Shown here: one piece after another, positions 1 through 58,957 of the stretch
Layout: each line of letters starts with the position of its first letter
Position numbering within the stretch: the stretch's first letter is position 1
Assembly: GCA_010093745.1 (NCBI GenBank)
Contig: MU005958.1
Span: 558,001-622,000, forward strand
Source: Piedraia hortae CBS 480.64
Taxonomy: Eukaryota
DNA length: 64,000 nt
Direction: 5' to 3'
The notes under the pieces: generated by a model
Told to the model about the DNA's origin: nothing
The model's database searches: none
The model's input: only the letters and a program-made list of their open reading frames with translations
Translations under genes and position numbers: made by a program

Positions 1-658
1 CATCAGGATCAAGGCTATGCGTTGGTTTGTCTGTTTTCTGACGGAACTGCGCGTGCTTATAGCATTCCATCCTTACGAGAGCTGGCTTCTCTAAGGCTGG
101 GTCAAGTGCTTGATGCTAAAAGGTTCCACGAAGCTACGGTTGCGCCTACTGGGCACATTGTAGGGTTTGCTGGACCTTCGGAGCTGGCTGTGGTTTCTGT
201 CTGGGGAGATGTTGAACGTCCAAAGAATCCTGACAAGCTGTTCAATGTTGAAGCAACTATACCACCTCGACCCACAATATCTGCTGTGCAATGGGTCACG
301 GGAACGCAATACCTCACTCCTTTGGATCTTGATGTGCTAATTGGTGGTCCTGAACGTCCGCCTTCTAAGCGAATGCTGGCAGAGGCTGAAGCAAACCGCC
401 CTGCTCCAGTACAAGGCACTGCAAACCAAGAAGGATACTGGGCTTATATGCAACGACAAGTGACCGAACGCACTCAGAACCTCAACCTAATGGGTGATAC
501 GATGAGCGACATGGAAGAAGCCAGTGCCACATGGGCAAAGGATGTGAACAAATTTGTTAACCAGCAAAAGAAAAAGGCTGTGACGGGGAGTGAGTCTTTC
601 ATACATCACAAGACGCAGGCTGACAACTCCAGTGATCAAGTCGAAATTCGGATTTTAG
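1..658 (+). CDS. SRO7: Lgl/tomosyn-family exocytosis regulator, 3' part (5' end lies outside the window)
   Basis: Translation has [38 protein letters not shown] and an R-SNARE-like tail ([30 protein letters not shown]). Intron 590-632 (GTGAGT..GCTGAC..CAG) gives the terminal MIKSKFGF* ending at 658. Confidence 0.85.
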
Positions 659-743: not shown

Positions 744-1640
744 ATGCGCTTCTCCTTTGACTACTGCCCCGACCGGCCCGAAAATATTGACCATATCCTG
801 AACGGCCTTGATCGGTATAACCCAGAGACGACTATCATCTTCCAAGACTACGTAGAGCTGCAGTGTGAGAACCAGACCTATGACTGCTATGCGAACCTCG
901 CCCTGCTAAAGCTGTAAGTACTGCAAAAACCCCTAGCCCTCCAATGATGACCAAAAAACGTTTCCTATTACCTGAACCTATGGTGATGTTCAACGAATAT
1001 TAGCTCTATCTGACCCTTATTTGCGTCCACTTGTAACCTCTAGCCGCGAGCAGCTGCTAACCGGACTAGATACCAATTCAACCCGCAGCTTACGCGGGAT
1101 GAAACCATCACAAACATCCTAGTTAAAGCGTTGACGGTTTTTCCATCTCCCGATTTCAGCCTCTGTCTCTCGCTACTTCCTCCCCATGTTGCCGGAACGA
1201 CAAAACAGCAGGGCGCCTCGTCTGCCTCAGCGGGAAGCATTACCGAGGCCGTACAGCAGCTCAGCGTGCTGCACGCACAGCTAAAAAACGCCCAGTACGC
1301 GCAGTTCTGGACCACGCTCGAGAGCGACGATCTCTACGCCGACCTGGTGGCCGACGTGCAGGGGTTTGACGAGCTGATGCGCGTTAGAATCGCCGTCGTC
1401 GTGTCGCAGTGCATGCAGGAGGTCGACCGCGACGTGCTGGAGCGCTGGCTGAACCTGTCCGGGTCCAAGTTTGATAAGTTCGTCAAGGACATTTGCGGAT
1501 GGGATGTCGACAACAGTGGGAAGTCCATCAAGATCCCGCTGAACAAGGACAACGAGGCGCGCAGCACAACAGTCAGGGAGGATGTCAAGTTTGAGCAGTT
1601 TGGACGCATGATTAAAAGGGCTTACGAGGTCGGCGCATGA
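744..1640 (+). CDS. eIF3k: Eukaryotic translation initiation factor 3 subunit K
   Basis: Exon 1 744-913 ([25 protein letters not shown]); intron 914-1069 (GTAAGT..GCTAAC..TAG); exon 2 [26 protein letters not shown], typical of the eIF3k PCI domain. Confidence 0.95.
941..1016 (+). ncRNA. Intronic box C/D snoRNA, SNORD44(U44)/snoR18-like, with two guides
   Basis: Inside the eIF3k intron: box C ATGATGA 944-950, D' CTGA 972-975, C' GTGATGT 983-989, box D CTGA 1010-1013. Guide TATTAGCTCTA complements conserved 18S UAGAGCUAAUA. Guide CGTTTCCTATTA complements conserved LSU UAAUAGGGAACG with one G:U pair. Confidence 0.85.
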
Positions 1641-1733: not shown

Positions 1734-2622
1734 CTACTGGGTCATAACGGTGTCCTTGCTGGTTTCCGTGGTGTGGGCGGCAGTGGATGGCTCGACTTCC
1801 ATCTGGTCGTCTTCCTCCTCCTCACCTTCCACCTCCACCTCGTCCTCTGAGCTTTCGGCTTCCAGATCCTCAGACGCGTTTTCATCATCGTCCTTGTCCT
1901 CAGCAGTGGCTGTGGCGGCGGCAGACGGCTCGGTGCCTTCCATGTGATGATCCTCTTCACCTTCAGCACCCTCAGCTGCACCTGTCTTAGCCTCTTCCTC
2001 CTCTAGCTCCAGCTCTTCAGCGCCGTACTCCTCCTCGTCATTCTCAGCCGCGTCGGCCTCGGGCTGGTCGGGCGGGAACTCAGCAGGGGCCGACTCCTCG
2101 CTGTCCCACTTGATAGCGAAGCGGGTGACCCTGGGCTTCTCGGCGAGGATATTACGCTTTATCTTCTCTAGAATGGGTTTCGCGGGGGGCTCGTTCTGCA
2201 GGGCTTCATCCGCATACTCATTGTTCACGTAGTATCCGACGCGGACAAACTCGCGACCATCATAGGCACAGCTCAGCAAGATGACCGTCACTCCCAAGAT
2301 CTCGCTGGCGGGGATGCGCGACGTGTCCGGCGCCCCGGCCTCAAAAGTGAACTTGTTCACGCCCACGGGGATGGGGCCGACCAAAAGAGAATCCAGATCC
2401 TGATCCAATTCGGAGCTTTGAGCCCGTTAGCTGCAGAAAGGGAGAAACCGGGGGGAAACAATCCTGAACTCACCTGGTTGCGGATCCGACGTAGGTCAAC
2501 TTCCATTCAAGATCCTTTTGCAGGGGTTCCAAGCATTCAAATGTGATTTCAAACTCGTACGGCGCGTTGAAAGCGGCTGGATTGTTGCGAACGGCGACGT
2601 TGAGCAGGGAGACGGACGCCAT
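1734..2622 (-). CDS. ASF1: Histone H3/H4 chaperone Asf1
   Basis: [48 protein letters not shown]; intron 2473-2416; [37 protein letters not shown]; acidic tail. Confidence 0.97.
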
Positions 2623-2726
2623 GGTTGTAGAGACCTATCAGTGTGTTGTGAGGCAGGGTGGAAGAGAGTCAACGCAAGCCCAGGCAAGCGCGCGTTGGCC
2701 AGACACGTTCCCTGCGCTAATTTAAG

Positions 2727-2766
2727 ACGCGTGACGTGACGCGACGCGACGCGCTTTGACTCGCGT
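2727..2766. promoter_or_regulatory. Cluster of MCB-like (ACGCG[T/A]) cell-cycle boxes upstream of ASF1
   Basis: ACGCGT 2727-2732, ACGCGA twice, ACGCGC, and TCGCGT 2761-2766, about 110-140 bp upstream of the ASF1 ATG. Confidence 0.6.
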
Positions 2767-2862
2767 CTGGCAAATGGCAGATGATTGCTGCCGCTTGATT
2801 GGAGAGGCCCACAAAGAACTTTTGGTTGACTCTCGTAATCTTACAGCTATGTTACCTGCTAC

Positions 2863-4170
2863 CTACGGCCCTTCCTGAAGTCTAGGGTCCAGATGCGGGA
2901 CGCCTTCTGCCGCTGGTTCATGCAATGGGTCAAATCCATACTCGGGAAACGTCCTCTGCTGAACTGGTCCAGCCTGGCCGCCCGTAGGGTTGCGCGGAGA
3001 GGGAAGCGTTAGGGGCGCACTTGTAACATGCCCCGGGGCCTGCGGAAGAGCAATGGAGGATATTTCCGGATTTAAATTTCCATGCAAGGCGTGCCGCTCG
3101 TGCTCGAAGTTTGCGTGCTGAGCAAGAGCTGCCAGCGTCTGCTGGTCCATCGTATCCCCACCGTGTGCAGACGCAAGCGTTGGCGCCGTCGGAGCTGTAG
3201 CAGGCGACGTATTGGCATTAGCAGTATGAGCCAGTGTCCCAGCCCCAAGATCCTGTTGGTCCTGAGCCTGCGCGGGCGGCGGCAGATCCCATTCGTCGGG
3301 CAATTCTTCAGGGTTCTGAACGCTTATAAAGGTGAGGTTCTTTGGGATCTTTACCCAAACTGCGTTGTCGGCGAACGTTTCCGTGCAGCTATAGAACTTC
3401 TTCGCCGGTTTCTTGTCGCTCGGGCCTGCTTCCTGAGCGACAGCCGGCCCTGAAGAGGGTCCGGCAGCCATCGTCGTCCCAACAGGGGAACTACCGGTTT
3501 TGAAACCAGCGGCACCCTGCGCGAACTCCGCTGCCTGGGGCTGTATGCGTGATGCAGCGGCTTGCTCTCTCGATGCGACCTCTGCGGCAATCACCCTCGC
3601 TCTGCGGTCCTGGATGGCCTTTGGGCCGTTCAAAGACGGATTTTGCTGATGGCGAAAGGCAACCGCATCAGAAGGCACGCAGTCGCGGCTCGACTTGCGG
3701 CATTGGCCGCACAAAGGACGTACTTCATCGCACTTGAGCTGTTCATCATGTGGTCAGCCTGAGATAGGGGAGCTTTTCTTCGCGGTTGGTAGGGAGGTAG
3801 AAAAAGTAGGAATGCTGCACATCTCATCAAAACTCGACGGGATCCTCCGTATAATCTTGTGAGAGTGAAGTGGCCAAGAGTAGGGCCCCTCTGCGCCAAG
3901 AGATTGAGGTGGTTCATACCTTGCGCTGCCGACAAGTCAAGCTGGGAAAGTTAGCCGATGCCCTGAAAATTTTCCTATTCAACTTCTTTGTGCGCTCACG
4001 AGTCTATTTCTCCGCACTTCTATCTCGTCCTCGCTAGATTTTCCCAGGGGTTCAATTGCCACTTACCATCCGGTCCGGGAGCGTGTACATCTGGCTTTCT
4101 TGCGCGCGGAGGATTTATCACCGCCTCCTACACCGCCGCCGCCGCTGTTACTAGCAATAGGGGATTCCAT
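2863..4170 (-). CDS. Short Zn(II)2Cys6 binuclear-cluster transcription factor
   Basis: The spliced N-terminus reads MESPIAS..RSRTGC / LTCRQRK / LKCDEVRPLCGQCRKSSRDC, with exons about 4170-4067, 3941-3920 and 3737-2863, donors GTAAGT and GTATGA and CAG acceptors. The remainder is low-complexity. Confidence 0.85.
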
Positions 4171-4649
4171 GTTTGTGCTGGCGTTGGCGATGCGGGAAGA
4201 GAAAAATTAGGAGGGAGGTGTCACCAAGCACTTGTCGGCGCGCTGCGCGTTGCGCACATGTGTTCGGGTTCTCTATATCGCTTTGCGGCCTTGGAACGTT
4301 TCGTGCTGAGGATGGGTAGGTAAACTAATGGGTGTTCTGAGAGTCGAGGGGTGCGGTGGTCTGTTGAAATGGAGACTTTAGACTGAGCGTTCGATTGGAT
4401 GTTTCGCCAAGAGAGAACGGCTTCTTGGCATTATTTACACATGGTGCACCTTCTGGACTTATTCACCATAGAACCTCGCCAGCTTTTTATCTGATGGATT
4501 CATCAGCAAACATACTACGCACCGCCGTTTGCTACATACGATAGTTTGGGAATCCCATATCGAGCCCCAAGCTCTAGCGAAGCAATTCGCGCTATGAAAC
4601 TCATCCTTTTCTTGCATCGACTAAACTGTTTGAACTTAAGAGACGAGAG

Positions 4650-6050
4650 ATGCGAGTAACAGAGCCCCGGCTGAGACTGTTATCTTGGGAGACAACACTT
4701 CCCTACCAGCAGGCTGCATTCCAAATGCATATCCCGTTCGCACAGGGATTGCAAACAGTCCTTGTTCGGTTTGCAGTTGAGCGCCAAAAATTAATTAACC
4801 TCATGAGGCTCAGCACATGCGTGGAAAATCGCATCCACAAGTCTGTACGAGTTATATGAGCAGGCATCAACCCCTCCTGGGTTTGCAACACAAGTGAATA
4901 TTTACTTGACCATGGCCTCCTGATGAATCGCACAACCCTGAGTAGAGCCTTGCGAGCGTACTGTAAGTTTCAATCCTGTCCTCGAAGTCCAGGAAGAGCT
5001 TTGGCATGTGCTGGAGTTGTCCGACTTCCGGTCACGACGGTGCTTTGCCTGCCGCGACAGCCCCATACAATGAACATTACCGATCTCTACCAAGAGGCAC
5101 ACTGAAGCACTTGACTTCTACGGATCACAATCAAGAAACATCATTGGCAACTACCAAATGATCAATTCATCAATCTAACGTTCTCCATTGGAGGAACACA
5201 TCCTTTAACAGCTATGAGTTCGGCTGCCAAAGCTGAGCCGAACAACGTAAAACACTCCGATTTATGATCTTACAGCGTAACCGCTTCGCTGCAGTTACAC
5301 ATGTACAACATGACATCAGGGCCCAAGACGCGCCAACGCTACCTCGGAGTACCGCAAGGCTTATCGCACCTTGCACTGGCTGAGCACTATTCGAGAAGCT
5401 TATCATGTTCCAATCCTCAGCGCGAGTGTGCACTCCGGCAAAGGCGACGTCGTAAACTCTATCGGCTCCGTTGACATTGATACACCACTTGGCAACATCC
5501 AGTTCCACATACTGATACGCCAACGCCGTTCATCCAGCGTTTAGCCGACATGGATAGGCTTGGGATATGCTTCAACAATACCCTCGACCGACTCAACTCT
5601 AAATTCCAGTATTCCGAGTAACATGATCGGAATATTAGTCGGAATTCCACATGGATTTCACAACCACATTTTCATCAGCTCAAGATGCCAAAGGGAATTG
5701 TTTGGGGTTCGGCAGAGACTGAGCCCTTTGTTTTCGAACACCCTTCTGAATCTCTCCTCACAGCGGAGTATAATGAACTCGAGCCCAACTCCTCAGCAAA
5801 CGCCATGCCAACACAGACGTCTGACGACATAGCAGAAGTAGAGGCTCCTTCCGTACCGCAGCCCATTGACGACTATGCCTATGCTGAGCTTGCGCCCCAA
5901 TGAACGTGTTCCTGGCGCTTCGAGGTTTCAAGCAGCGCTGGCTTGCTTGTGTTGGGATATCCAGCTGTCACAGGAGCAATACAAGCAGTTGAAAGAGGTT
6001 TTCAGCATATGGAGAAGTCAAATTGCTTCCCAGTCTCCCAGACAAGGTTG
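4650..6050 (+). mobile_element. Possible highly decayed DNA-transposon-like or orphan gene relic
   Basis: Fragmented, stop-interrupted, protein-like stretches (AEQRKTLRFMIL; AALACLCWDIQLSQEQYKQLKEVF) in a gene-poor pocket. The resemblance to fungal transposon-associated ORFs is from memory only; no terminal repeats seen. Confidence 0.2.
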
Positions 6051-6391
6051 ATGGCTGACTGCCGCTTTTGCCAATGAACAAAACGACAACTCCGTGGATT
6101 GCAGCAAAAGCAAAGGAGCAATAAACAAGCAAAAGAGAACCTCTTCTTCGTTGATGCGCTTTGGTTTTCCCTTGCGTTTGCTAGCGGCTGCGAAAGCTTT
6201 TAACGATTCAGTAACGCCAAAAGCGTAAACCAACCACCGACAACATTGCGAAAACGGTATGTCTTTTGAAACGCGAATGAGTAACATTTCCGCGGCCTGT
6301 TCGGGTCTTGCACCGTTTGTGGCTCTGATTATGCTTTCTTGGCCCGTGGTCGTTCGAGGACTGGCAAATACTTTTTGGAGATGACATTTCG

Positions 6392-6700
6392 GTGAATGCA
6401 CTCTTCGCCAACGTTAAAATGACATCCTCGGATCTGGAGAGATTGAAACTGAAGTTGCCGTCAGATCAATTTTTAAAAGAGGGGGGTAATTGGAAACCAT
6501 GGCTCAATCAGATTGTCGGGGCAATGAAAGCGACCGGATGGGCAATCGGACAGTCGTTGACAATTGATGGAGAACTTGTTTCCTCCGTTATAGATGCCAG
6601 TGGTTGCTAGGACACTGACACTCGGTTTTACACCTGTATGTTGTTTTGAATGCCAGGAAACATATTGCTAGCATGATAGCTTGAAAGGTTGGTCAGGATG
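6392..6700 (+). mobile_element. Possible Copia-type gag N-terminal relic
   Basis: LKLKLPSDQFLKEGGNWKPWLNQIVGAMKATGW resembles the L..G.NW..W motif at retrotransposon gag N-termini; it is truncated by TAG at 6610. Confidence 0.25.
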
Positions 6701-50200: not shown

Positions 50201-51332
50201 CGCTTGTGGGTGTTTGAACTGGTAGAGCCTCATCCGTAGTGACCGTGCTGGTAAACGTCAAGGTTGGGAGTGTGAATGTATACGCAAAATCAGTGGCCAT
50301 GGAGCTTGGCAAAACTGTGACGATGATAGTAGTTTCCACAGGCATGCTGCTGACAGTGGTTGTCATCATCTGCGTCTCAACGTTATTCACAGTCATGGTA
50401 GATGTCATCATCATGGTGAACGTCTTCCACAGCGTCTCCGTGATTGTGACCGTTGAACATGGCATCGAGTAGACATCGCACACCAAAGAAGCGACCGCTG
50501 TGTCAGATGGTCCAATAGTCGTGATTGTCGGCGTCATGGTCGCTGGAACCGGGCATTCAGTGATTTCGGTAATTTGTCTGATCAACCCAAAAACTTGGTC
50601 TGCAATCGGGTCCACAGCAGCCTTTGGCAGAGGCATCGCCTGTTGCAGGCTATTGTTGACCTCCGCTACGAACTGAGCCGAAGGCATTCCAGTCGAAAGC
50701 TTTTCTAACAGACTGTTGATAATGGCGATGGACTGGGCCTCCAAAGAAGCCGAGAGTCCGCGGAGCATCTGTCCAATCGCTTGTACGTCATCATTCACTT
50801 TAAGGGGTATGTCGTTCAAGCAATCTGGTCTAGCCACAAGTGATTCAATTCCATGGGTGATCACCGAAGCAAGAAGACTTGGTATGGCACTCAGGGCATC
50901 GATGGCATTTGCATACTCCTTGGCCAAAGCGTCAGGCAGACCAGAAAGCGAATCGACCGTAGAATCGCTTGAAATGTTGGTGTTGAGAGCATCGCTAATC
51001 TTCTCCTTTAGATGACAGGGAACCATAGAAAGTGAATTAACGGCTTCTGCGATCCATTCCAAGATAGATTCCTCAACGAGGGCCAGAGCTGATATAGCAT
51101 CGGTAGCATCTGCTGTCATACCAGTCGGGAGGGCCTCCAGTGATCCAATGGCACTGGTGGCTTGCGCGCGAACAGATGTCTGAATGCTCCCCAGTGAATC
51201 AACGGCGCAGGCGGCGTATGTAGGCATCAGCACTGGAGCCACCGTCGACGTATTGACTTGGTGCAGTGCATTATGGTCAGCGTTGGCAACGGCAGTGAGG
51301 GCCAGCAGCACGCCGGCCAGAACCTTCGGCAT
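47226..51332 (-). CDS. Large secreted Ser/Thr/Val-rich, probably GPI-anchored, cell-wall adhesin or mucin with internal repeats
   Basis: Signal peptide MPKVLAGVLLALTAVANA; helical N-terminal region; tandem T/V/S repeats; C-terminal NTGEGASLSHGLGMGGLLAAFVAIGVLI GPI-type signal. No introns are needed. Confidence 0.88.
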   Translation of the reverse strand: MPKVLAGVLLALTAVANADHNALHQVNTSTVAPVLMPTYAACAVDSLGSIQTSVRAQATSAIGSLEALPTGMTADATDAISALALVEESILEWIAEAVNSLSMVPCHLKEKISDALNTNISSDSTVDSLSGLPDALAKEYANAIDALSAIPSLLASVITHGIESLVARPDCLNDIPLKVNDDVQAIGQMLRGLSASLEAQSIAIINSLLEKLSTGMPSAQFVAEVNNSLQQAMPLPKAAVDPIADQVFGLIRQITEITECPVPATMTPTITTIGPSDTAVASLVCDVYSMPCSTVTITETLWKTFTMMMTSTMTVNNVETQMMTTTVSSMPVETTIIVTVLPSSMATDFAYTFTLPTLTFTSTVTTDEALPVQTPTSVVPATEVATVSTSPSAEIPSTPSQESPTTLATVTVSPYPGPTDSGNSSVPSASVTESSTSSGQGSHEVPGTVTVTASATTVETIAESSSALSDTNTMPTHSLETSPESLSSSGLESSMIPGTETVTVSDTAVVTDSGSLLSPSSSPMVMPNSTVDISIIGTVTVGGQQPSQTSATVTVTDCITIVTVSGTQSSIVSQLQPSGLSTPDVTESLTSGVPASNDTPGTVTVTQSITVAETITPSGIEPSTQTVTVSDTAVVTDSGSLPSPSGSSMVVPDSTLEVSATDTVTIGGQLPGTETVTVSETAVVTDSGSLSPSDSSIVMPNSTLEVPVTKTLTIGGDQPGQTPATVTVTDCVTIVTVSGTQSSIVSQIEPSDLSTTLPTLTLTLGTLATEGLTSNVQGSNDTPETLTVTQSVTVSETLTPSGLEPSKESDTETVTVSDTAIVTDSGSSSPSSSPLTMPNSTLEVPVTETLTISGQQPGQSATVTVTDCVTIVTVSGTQSSIISQLPPSVISETPVTETLTASGQEPSKLPGTVTVTMSETVVVTDSDTLPTPSDLSMGVTNSTLEVPVTKTITIEGEQPGQTPTTVTVTDCVTLVTVFGTQSSIVSQLQPSGVSTTSPTGTDGQGSTVTVTQSVTVVTTPSSQLQSLPPDVVTVTDNVTAVVTESSQGQKDLTVTLPTLSLDTASSDTGMLTWTLPTLSLETAVSSSPSSSDTGMLTWTLPTLSLETSVTTSSAPVVSVTEVTTVGETSDIPTETVILTGPDSTPSILTWLLPTLTLETVVTETTATSSGTPVVVTITEVSTLGETSGPETVTVTVLPTETESTADILTWTLPTLTLETVVTETPTTSSGTPVASVTNVSTIVETSGPKTVTVVVTETGSTADILTWTQPTLTLETVVSNSSSTVQNVAYSTTTSIEYVLESTSSAGMVTVTTFEYVTSQTPSQSCRLLCYEGGYGGDKVNTGEGASLSHGLGMGGLLAAFVAIGVLI

Positions 51333-58884: not shown

Positions 58885-58957
58885 GCCTCTATAGCTCAGT
58901 TGGTAGAGCGCGGCACTAGTAATGCCGAGGTCTTCAGTTCAAATCTGAATGGAGGCA
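58885..58957 (+). tRNA. tRNA-Thr (anticodon AGT), intronless
   Basis: Acceptor stem GCCTCTA/TGGAGGC, D arm GCTCAGTTGGTAGAGC, anticodon arm CGGCA-CTAGTAA-TGCCG, T arm TTCAG-TTCAAAT-CTGAA; oligo-T Pol III terminator near 58980-58987. Confidence 0.97.

Follow-up and report, generated by a model that had tools for sequence, protein, structure and literature searches.

The first intron of the gene for eukaryotic translation initiation factor 3 subunit K (eIF3k) in Piedraia hortae most probably encodes a box C/D snoRNA of about 76 nt that carries two guides, one directed to an A of 18S rRNA and the other to a U of the large-subunit (LSU) rRNA. Piedraia hortae is a Dothideomycete of the order Capnodiales, and the whole 64-kb stretch of its DNA that was analysed is referred to as the window hereafter. 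The snoRNA is genuine and related to snoR18 of plants, CD32 of Neurospora, and U44 of humans, and as such a fairly ordinary find. It leaves the general understanding of snoRNAs unchanged; the points of modest interest are the plant-like pair of guides, the shift of the LSU site, and the retention of eIF3k as the host.

The host gene starts at the ATG at position 744 of the forward strand. Exon 1 (744..913, +) ends on two bases of a Leu codon, intron 1 (914..1069, +; 156 nt) runs from GTAAGT through CTAAC to TAG, and exon 2 (1070..1640, +) ends with the stop codon TGA at 1638–1640. As read from the sequence, removal of the intron fuses the reading frame beginning at ATG 744 with that ending at TGA 1640, and the exon 2 product matches the Pfam family PF10075 (CSN8/PSMD8/EIF3K) with an E-value of 3.9e-31. 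In a protein search, exon 2 was found to be 100% identical to a public protein of 246 aa (P0001), which its source names eukaryotic translation initiation factor 3 subunit K of Piedraia hortae CBS 480.64. This protein has the N-terminus MRFSFDY, in agreement with the reading frame of exon 1, and carries LALLKLYQFNP across the 913/1070 joint. The same joint, with 156 nt skipped between GT..AG ends, was found in a contig from a run guessed to be RNA (X2), in which only the spliced host mRNA is seen; the DNA run X1 is collinear with the window. Because the X2 contig and the public protein both join 913 to 1070, the intron is real and spliced. The preliminary description had presented this 156-nt eIF3k intron as about three times as long as the usual 40–60 nt. 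The intron and its length are borne out by the splice-site ends, the X2 joint, and P0001, whereas the usual size is supported only crudely: a splice-signal regex yielded 12 introns of 40–59 nt in the window against 5.0 expected from shuffles, and these are candidates, not confirmed introns. In the region upstream of eIF3k, positions 1–657 (+) contain the end of a gene whose C-terminal domain is Lgl/Sro7-like (PF08596, E 2.9e-36), with a candidate 43-nt intron at 590–632. One X2 contig of 5088 nt starts upstream of position 650 and covers the spliced eIF3k gene as well. This suggests that transcripts overlap or read through, or that the contig was joined during assembly.

Within the intron, four boxes occur on the forward strand in the correct order, as had been described: the C box AUGAUGA (944..950), the D′ box CUGA (972..975), the C′ box GUGAUGU (983..989), and the D box CUGA (1010..1013). 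The C′ box departs from RUGAUGA at one position, the last base. The spacers are 21 nt from C to D′, seven bases from D′ to C′, and 20 nt from C′ to D. The C box is located 30 nt from the 5′ splice site, and the branch-site consensus CTAAC (1057..1061, +) places the branch A 47 nt, and the 3′ splice site 56 nt, past the D box. The D′ guide ACGUUUCCUAUUA (958..970, +) and the D guide UAUUAGCUCUA (998..1008, +) precede their boxes. The mature RNA is predicted at 940..1017 (+), with a length of about 75–78 nt and ends placed from the boxes and from a match to the Rfam family RF00359 at 942–1019. The features of the box C/D class are accordingly found here: C and D boxes, an internal D′/C′ pair with one C′ mismatch, and guides of at least 10 bp with the target at the fifth position.

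In box C/D snoRNAs, the nucleotide opposite guide position 5, counted upstream from the D or D′ box, is the one that fibrillarin methylates. For the guides of the window, pairing was tested on a stand-in eukaryotic rDNA unit (L169), not on the rDNA of Piedraia hortae itself. Stand-in rRNA was sought by scanning bacterial and archaeal assemblies for a conserved LSU motif, which gave 33 eukaryotic LSU contaminant loci; all of the eight that were checked are RF02543 LSU_rRNA_eukarya. L169 comes from a eukaryotic rDNA contaminant contig with tandem repeats in the bacterial assemblies, and its boundaries, according to Rfam, are 328–2127 for the SSU, 2334–2487 for the 5.8S, and 2617–6413 for the LSU, the last containing a group I intron. 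One outstanding target was found on this unit for each guide. The 17 nt before the D box have their single best match, 11 Watson-Crick bp, in SSU TAGAGCTAATA, where the D guide is complementary to 18S UAGAGCUAAUA, with position 5 (U1005) opposite A162; D+5 is thus the A of 18S UAG[A]GC. The 17 nt before the D′ box have their single best match, 13 bp with one G-U, in LSU TAATAGGGAACGT, where the D′ guide pairs with UAAUAGGGAACGU and position 5 (A967) is opposite a U. In eukaryotic LSU fragments, the latter target starts 9 nt after the UG of the A-loop, at the junction between GGATTGTTCACCCAC and TAATAGGG. Both assignments made beforehand, that of the D guide to the A in UAG[A]GC and that of the D′ guide to LSU sequence immediately 3′ of the A-loop, therefore hold on the stand-in unit.

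The chance occurrence of such matches was examined with shuffled guides, in which a duplex had to start at guide positions 1–3 with position 5 paired, at most one G-U being allowed for D′ and none for D. No shuffle of the D′ guide reached 13 bp (0/500), and one shuffle of the D guide reached 11 Watson-Crick bp (1/500). A control allowing unlimited G-U pairs was uninformative. A crude scan of the whole 64-kb window for a C box, a D box, and a 10-bp guide gave two candidates; when it was applied to 100 block-shuffled windows, 94 contained none and six contained one. The second candidate in the window (50290–50414, −) consists of ATGATGATGA, a CTGA 80–125 nt further on, and a 10-nt LSU complement. 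It lies in a Thr/Ser/Met-rich reading frame, and its Rfam near-matches do not exceed 18 bits; it was rejected as probably a chance match, one that shows the false-positive rate of the scan.

This evident false positive inside an ORF lends some weight to a reading in which the motifs in the eIF3k intron are likewise a product of chance in an unusually long intron, or the conserved block is a splicing or regulatory element of eIF3k. Two further observations could be read in the same way. One is that no terminal stem joining the C and D boxes is present in the MFE fold of 932–1025. Many intronic snoRNAs have no terminal stem, so this criterion is weak. Another is that, in the Rfam check proposed in the preliminary description, no snoRNA family reached its gathering score in the window search; the best match below the threshold was RF00359 snoZ102_R77 (942–1019), with 21.5 bits against a gathering score of 40 and an E-value of 0.47, and the consensus of this family carries both guides. 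Nevertheless, four ordered boxes with two significant guides, a D guide identical to that of a published snoRNA (Nc CD32), and the same eIF3k intron position in four further sequence types with introns of 152–224 nt make an origin other than a snoRNA extremely improbable. That the intron encodes a real snoRNA with a working 18S guide is the firmest part of the reading and is highly probable. The sole Rfam match at the gathering score in the 64-kb window is a tRNA gene at 58885–58957 (+), with 69.3 bits.

A published snoRNA with the same D guide is Nc CD32 of N. crassa, an 82-nt intronic snoRNA in which this guide, 5′-UAUUAGCUCUAUCUGA, is depicted as pairing with 18S 3′-AUAAUCGAGAU-5′ for 18S-Am161 (Liu 2009, PMC2780460). 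Positions 998–1013 of the window, comprising the D guide and its box, are identical to the sequence of Nc CD32 in Additional file 4 of that paper at 16 of 16 positions. The two RNAs therefore share the D guide and box UAUUAGCUCUAU-CUGA and the 18S-Am161 register, both are encoded in introns, and their lengths are comparable (82 nt versus about 76 nt). In contrast, the D′ guide of Nc CD32 (CD_32 in snoStrip), AGCAUGUAUUAU-CUGA, targets 18S-Um167 (Liu 2009, PMC2780460), whereas that of the window, ACGUUUCCUAUUAC-CUGA, targets the LSU. The window copy also differs in its taxonomic origin: the main text of Canzler 2018 reports CD_32 from Sordariales only, and its supplements may list Dothideomycetes. 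The present copy thus adds a Dothideomycete member to a family that the main text of this largest fungal survey confines to Sordariales. In the available text of Liu 2009 (PMC2780460) and Canzler 2018, eIF3 goes unmentioned, and the host gene of Nc CD32 is unnamed in that of the former. As homologues of CD32, Arabidopsis snoR18 and human U44 are given there, and none in S. pombe or S. cerevisiae (Liu 2009, PMC2780460). Table 1 of the same paper assigns vertebrate SNORD44 (U44) to the same 18S site as that of the window guide.

No SNORD44 match was found among the Rfam near-matches listed for the window. RF00359 belongs to the Rfam clan CL00060, which we take to include SNORD44. The human U44 site is presumably 18S-Am166, and the human SNORD44 gene resides in the non-coding host GAS5; we know of no LSU guide in human SNORD44. 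Judged by guide identity and architecture, the window snoRNA is a member of the U44/snoR18/Z102-R77/CD32 group, an assignment to be read with the limits that the RF00359 gathering score is not reached and that the D′ guide defining N. crassa CD32 is absent. Three other identities were considered and rejected. One is N. crassa CD3 (26S-Um2840) as the counterpart of the D′ half; CD3 pairs with CUCUUCCUAUCAUA, which is a different site (Liu 2009, PMC2780460). Another is Tetrahymena TtnuCD4, a spurious Rfam near-match whose guide was assigned to tRNA by its authors. The last is Afu-199 of A. fumigatus, an orphan snoRNA in intron 1 of Afu7g02320, which is not the same case; that gene is of unknown function and has no yeast or Cryptococcus orthologue.

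A close counterpart in overall architecture is found in plants. Plant snoR18 (SnoR77.1; rice Z102; RF00359) is a double guide of the same order, with a D′ guide for the LSU segment that directly follows the A-loop (..UUCCCUAUU..) and the D guide UAUUAGCUCUAU-CUGA to the 18S A162 site. The plant-type pairing of an LSU guide with an SSU guide thus exists in fungi too. When the guides of the window are set against the sites of the RF00359 guides, the D guide falls on the same 18S site, and the D′ guide falls on the same LSU stretch but with its register at the neighbouring U. In Arabidopsis, both 18S-A162 and 25S-A2935 were found to be methylated by RiboMeth-seq, the latter with a score of about 0.96, and both are assigned to SnoR18 (earlier SnoR77.1, AtsnoR18) in the available text of Wu 2021 (PMC8053127). 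There are also several differences. The D′ box is CUGA in the window and UUGA in plants, and the window box is one base nearer to the guide core. The window sequence scores 21.5 bits against RF00359 (gathering score, 40), whereas plant-type copies from metagenomes score 57–98 bits. The window holds a single gene in the intron of a protein gene, whereas several of the plant-type metagenome copies are in tandem arrays. Finally, the plant and window RNAs differ in the internal loop and the terminal stem. The arrays themselves comprise six copies in L077 and five in L071, and occur also in L005, L041, and L056, with a spacing of 150–570 nt; in L005, Rfam found two further copies that the exact pattern had missed.

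The shift of the D′ box bears on which LSU nucleotide would be methylated. When the landmarks given by Wu 2021 (PMC8053127), namely U2922/G2923 in the A-loop, A2947, C2949, and C2960, are laid on the LSU fragment, A2935 becomes the second A of CUA[A]UAGGG. The D′+5 site of the window is consequently the next base, U2936 in Arabidopsis numbering. This agrees with the preliminary description, which had placed D′+5 on the U of UAA[U]AGGG, one base from the Am of plant snoR18, and the methylation and the SnoR18 assignment of Arabidopsis 25S-A2935 confirm the plant side of that comparison (Wu 2021, PMC8053127). The predicted site is the U and not the A because of the spacing in front of the box: in the fungal copies, CCUAUU is separated from a canonical CUGA by two bases (AC), whereas in the plant copies three (GGU) precede UUGA, which gives the A in the plant register. 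One may suppose instead that the D′ guide of the window modifies the A equivalent to A2935, or both the A and the U. The plant site is indeed this adjoining A, and non-canonical methylation of neighbouring nucleotides by single guides has been validated at U676, G1460, and U2411 (Wu 2021, PMC8053127). However, the canonical D′ box and the two, not three, bases after CCUAUU in both fungal copies lead to the U by the D′+5 rule, so that modification at the A appears rather unlikely. Provided that the D′ guide works, the U is the somewhat favoured site. The prediction is then a 2′-O-methyl group on a U that neighbours the peptidyl-transferase A-loop and lies one base away from the measured plant site.

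Related sequences were collected by scanning metagenomes with the pattern UGAUGA, 25–55 nt, and then AUUAGCUCUAUCUGA, which gave at least 133 loci, at least 177 matches, and at least 108 distinct C-to-D sequences. Plant and invertebrate copies predominate among the matches listed: 42 distinct sequences are of the plant type, with a D′ guide ending in ..UUCCCUAUUGGU before UUGA, 34 are of an invertebrate-like type with another D′ guide, 31 are of other types, and one, L018, has the fungal D′ guide UUUCCUAUUAC before CUGA. The dual-guide pattern had no match in genome_contigs and none in viral_contigs, and none of the 35 pattern matches in genome_contigs was confirmed by eIF3k alignment. In two of the metagenome loci, which come from other organisms, the 18S-A162 D guide was found coupled to other known D′ guides: in L051 (1501–1572, +) to CAGUUAUCCCUAU before CUGA, which is the N. 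crassa CD23/snR38 guide, and in L033 (915–983, −) to UGAUAGGAAGAG, a sequence similar to the guide of N. crassa CD3. Both loci clearly illustrate the recombination of guide halves.

Using tblastn with the exon translations of the window, eIF3k exons were found beside the snoRNA in at least five of the 133 listed loci (L018, L009, L055, L068, and L021, the last on the exon 2 side only); this is a lower bound, because only 80 of the 133 loci carry 1500-nt flanks. Since the snoRNA of L021 is identical to that of L068, the five loci represent four sequence types. In all of the eIF3k-hosted loci, the intron interrupts the same codon (LLKL|YQFNP), its length is 152–224 nt, and the snoRNA is located at a distance of 29–58 nt from the 5′ splice site. 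All five eIF3k-intron sequences have a C box, its core UGAUGA having been demanded by the pattern. That the D guide and the C-box core are conserved among the metagenome loci is not independent evidence, because the search pattern required both; it placed no such demand on the host gene, the intron position, or the D′ region, which count as independent observations. The eIF3k of L009 is Pezizomycotina-like and about 64% identical to its best named match, and for L055 and L068 the eIF3k identity is at most 50%. None of L018, L009, L055, and L068 reaches an Rfam gathering score.

The most informative of these loci for the D′ half is L018. Its exon 1 is 86–90% identical to eIF3k of Taxawa, of Dothideomycetes sp. 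NU457, and of three further matches, which indicates that L018 comes from another Dothideomycete. Between L018 and the window, exon 1 is identical at 120 of 168 positions and at 23 of 56 third codon positions, and the introns are unalignable outside the D′ guide and box. This element, AACGUUUCCUAUUACCUGA, with the same CUGA box, is identical at 19 of 19 positions. Its complete retention, despite the divergence of the third codon positions, is strong evidence, provided by one independent sequence, that the LSU guide is under selection in this lineage. The C′ box, on the other hand, is poorly kept in L018.

In three of the four other eIF3k-intron types (L009, L055, and L068/L021), no D′ match of at least 10 bp to the stand-in rDNA was found, so the LSU guide is not general in fungi. 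The conservation of boxes and guides in orthologous introns, on which the preliminary description had made its reading depend, is accordingly partial: the intron position recurs in four types and the D′ guide and box recur in L018, whereas three of the four types have no D′ match and the C′ box of L018 is weak. In these comparisons, the D guide stays constant, and turnover affects the D′ half; N. crassa has swapped its D′ half. Such turnover agrees with what is reported for fungal snoRNAs generally (Liu 2009, PMC2780460; Canzler 2018).

With D′ halves turning over in this manner, only the D guide of the window might work on its 18S A, the LSU complementarity being a decaying relic or a coincidence. 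The missing D′ matches in the three types, the different D′ guide of N. crassa CD32 with its target 18S-Um167 (Liu 2009, PMC2780460), the imperfect C′ box of the window, and the rarity of true double guides, which account for just 8 of the 68 C/D families in the fungal snoRNAome (Canzler 2018), would all suit a single guide. However, the 19/19 identity with L018 against 23/56 at the third codon positions, the 13-bp match that none of 500 shuffles reached, and the use of the D′ guide of plant SnoR18 on the same LSU stretch, where methylation was measured (Wu 2021, PMC8053127), tell against a relic or a coincidence, and a single working guide is unlikely. A D′ guide that works alongside the D guide is the likely state.

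In the intronic box C/D pathway, the boxes are bound by the core proteins while still part of the pre-mRNA, and the excised intron is debranched and trimmed. By this route, the spliced and debranched eIF3k intron would be trimmed by exonucleases to a snoRNP formed on the C/D and C′/D′ boxes with Snu13, Nop56, Nop58, and fibrillarin/Nop1. The accumulation of the RNA and both methylations are predicted from the DNA. The D guide would direct 2′-O-methylation of the A in 18S UAG[A]GC, the site corresponding to Am161 of N. crassa, Am162 of Arabidopsis, and the human U44 site, and the D′ guide would direct methylation of the U in UAA[U]AGG in LSU domain V, 3′ of the A-loop. The window snoRNA would then correspond, in Dothideomycetes, to plant snoR18/Z102/R77 and to N. 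crassa CD32, and its intron position would be one retained by fungi.

A broader history can be proposed, tentatively. An ancient double guide for the LSU A-loop flank and 18S A162 may have predated the split between plants and fungi and may have been kept in the first intron of eIF3k. A slip of D′ by one base in Dothideomycetes would have created a lineage-specific Um unknown in yeast, human, and Arabidopsis, the D′ half would have been swapped in N. crassa or lost elsewhere, and the budding and fission yeasts that lost eIF3k would have lost the guide together with the 18S methylation. As a whole, this scenario is doubtful, and one element of it, the loss of the guide with its host gene in yeasts, is plausible. 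To our knowledge, S. cerevisiae has no eIF3k. A ribosome-modifying guide tied to one intron of a translation-initiation-factor gene across divergent fungi would be a concrete example on which guide turnover, and the joint loss of a guide and its host, could be studied. In our literature search, no report linking eIF3k introns with snoRNAs and no methylation map for filamentous fungi were found, and among the papers listed on snoRNAs in Dothideomycetes, only Canzler 2018 was relevant.

Finally, the search for stand-in rRNA revealed eukaryotic LSU rRNA on at least 33 contigs filed as bacterial genomes or MAGs (L134–L169). The 24-kb contig behind L147, L149, and L169, which is labelled as a Bryobacteraceae MAG, carries fungal-like rDNA units in tandem, their LSU being interrupted by a group I intron. 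The eukaryotic rDNA in these public prokaryote assemblies is contamination.
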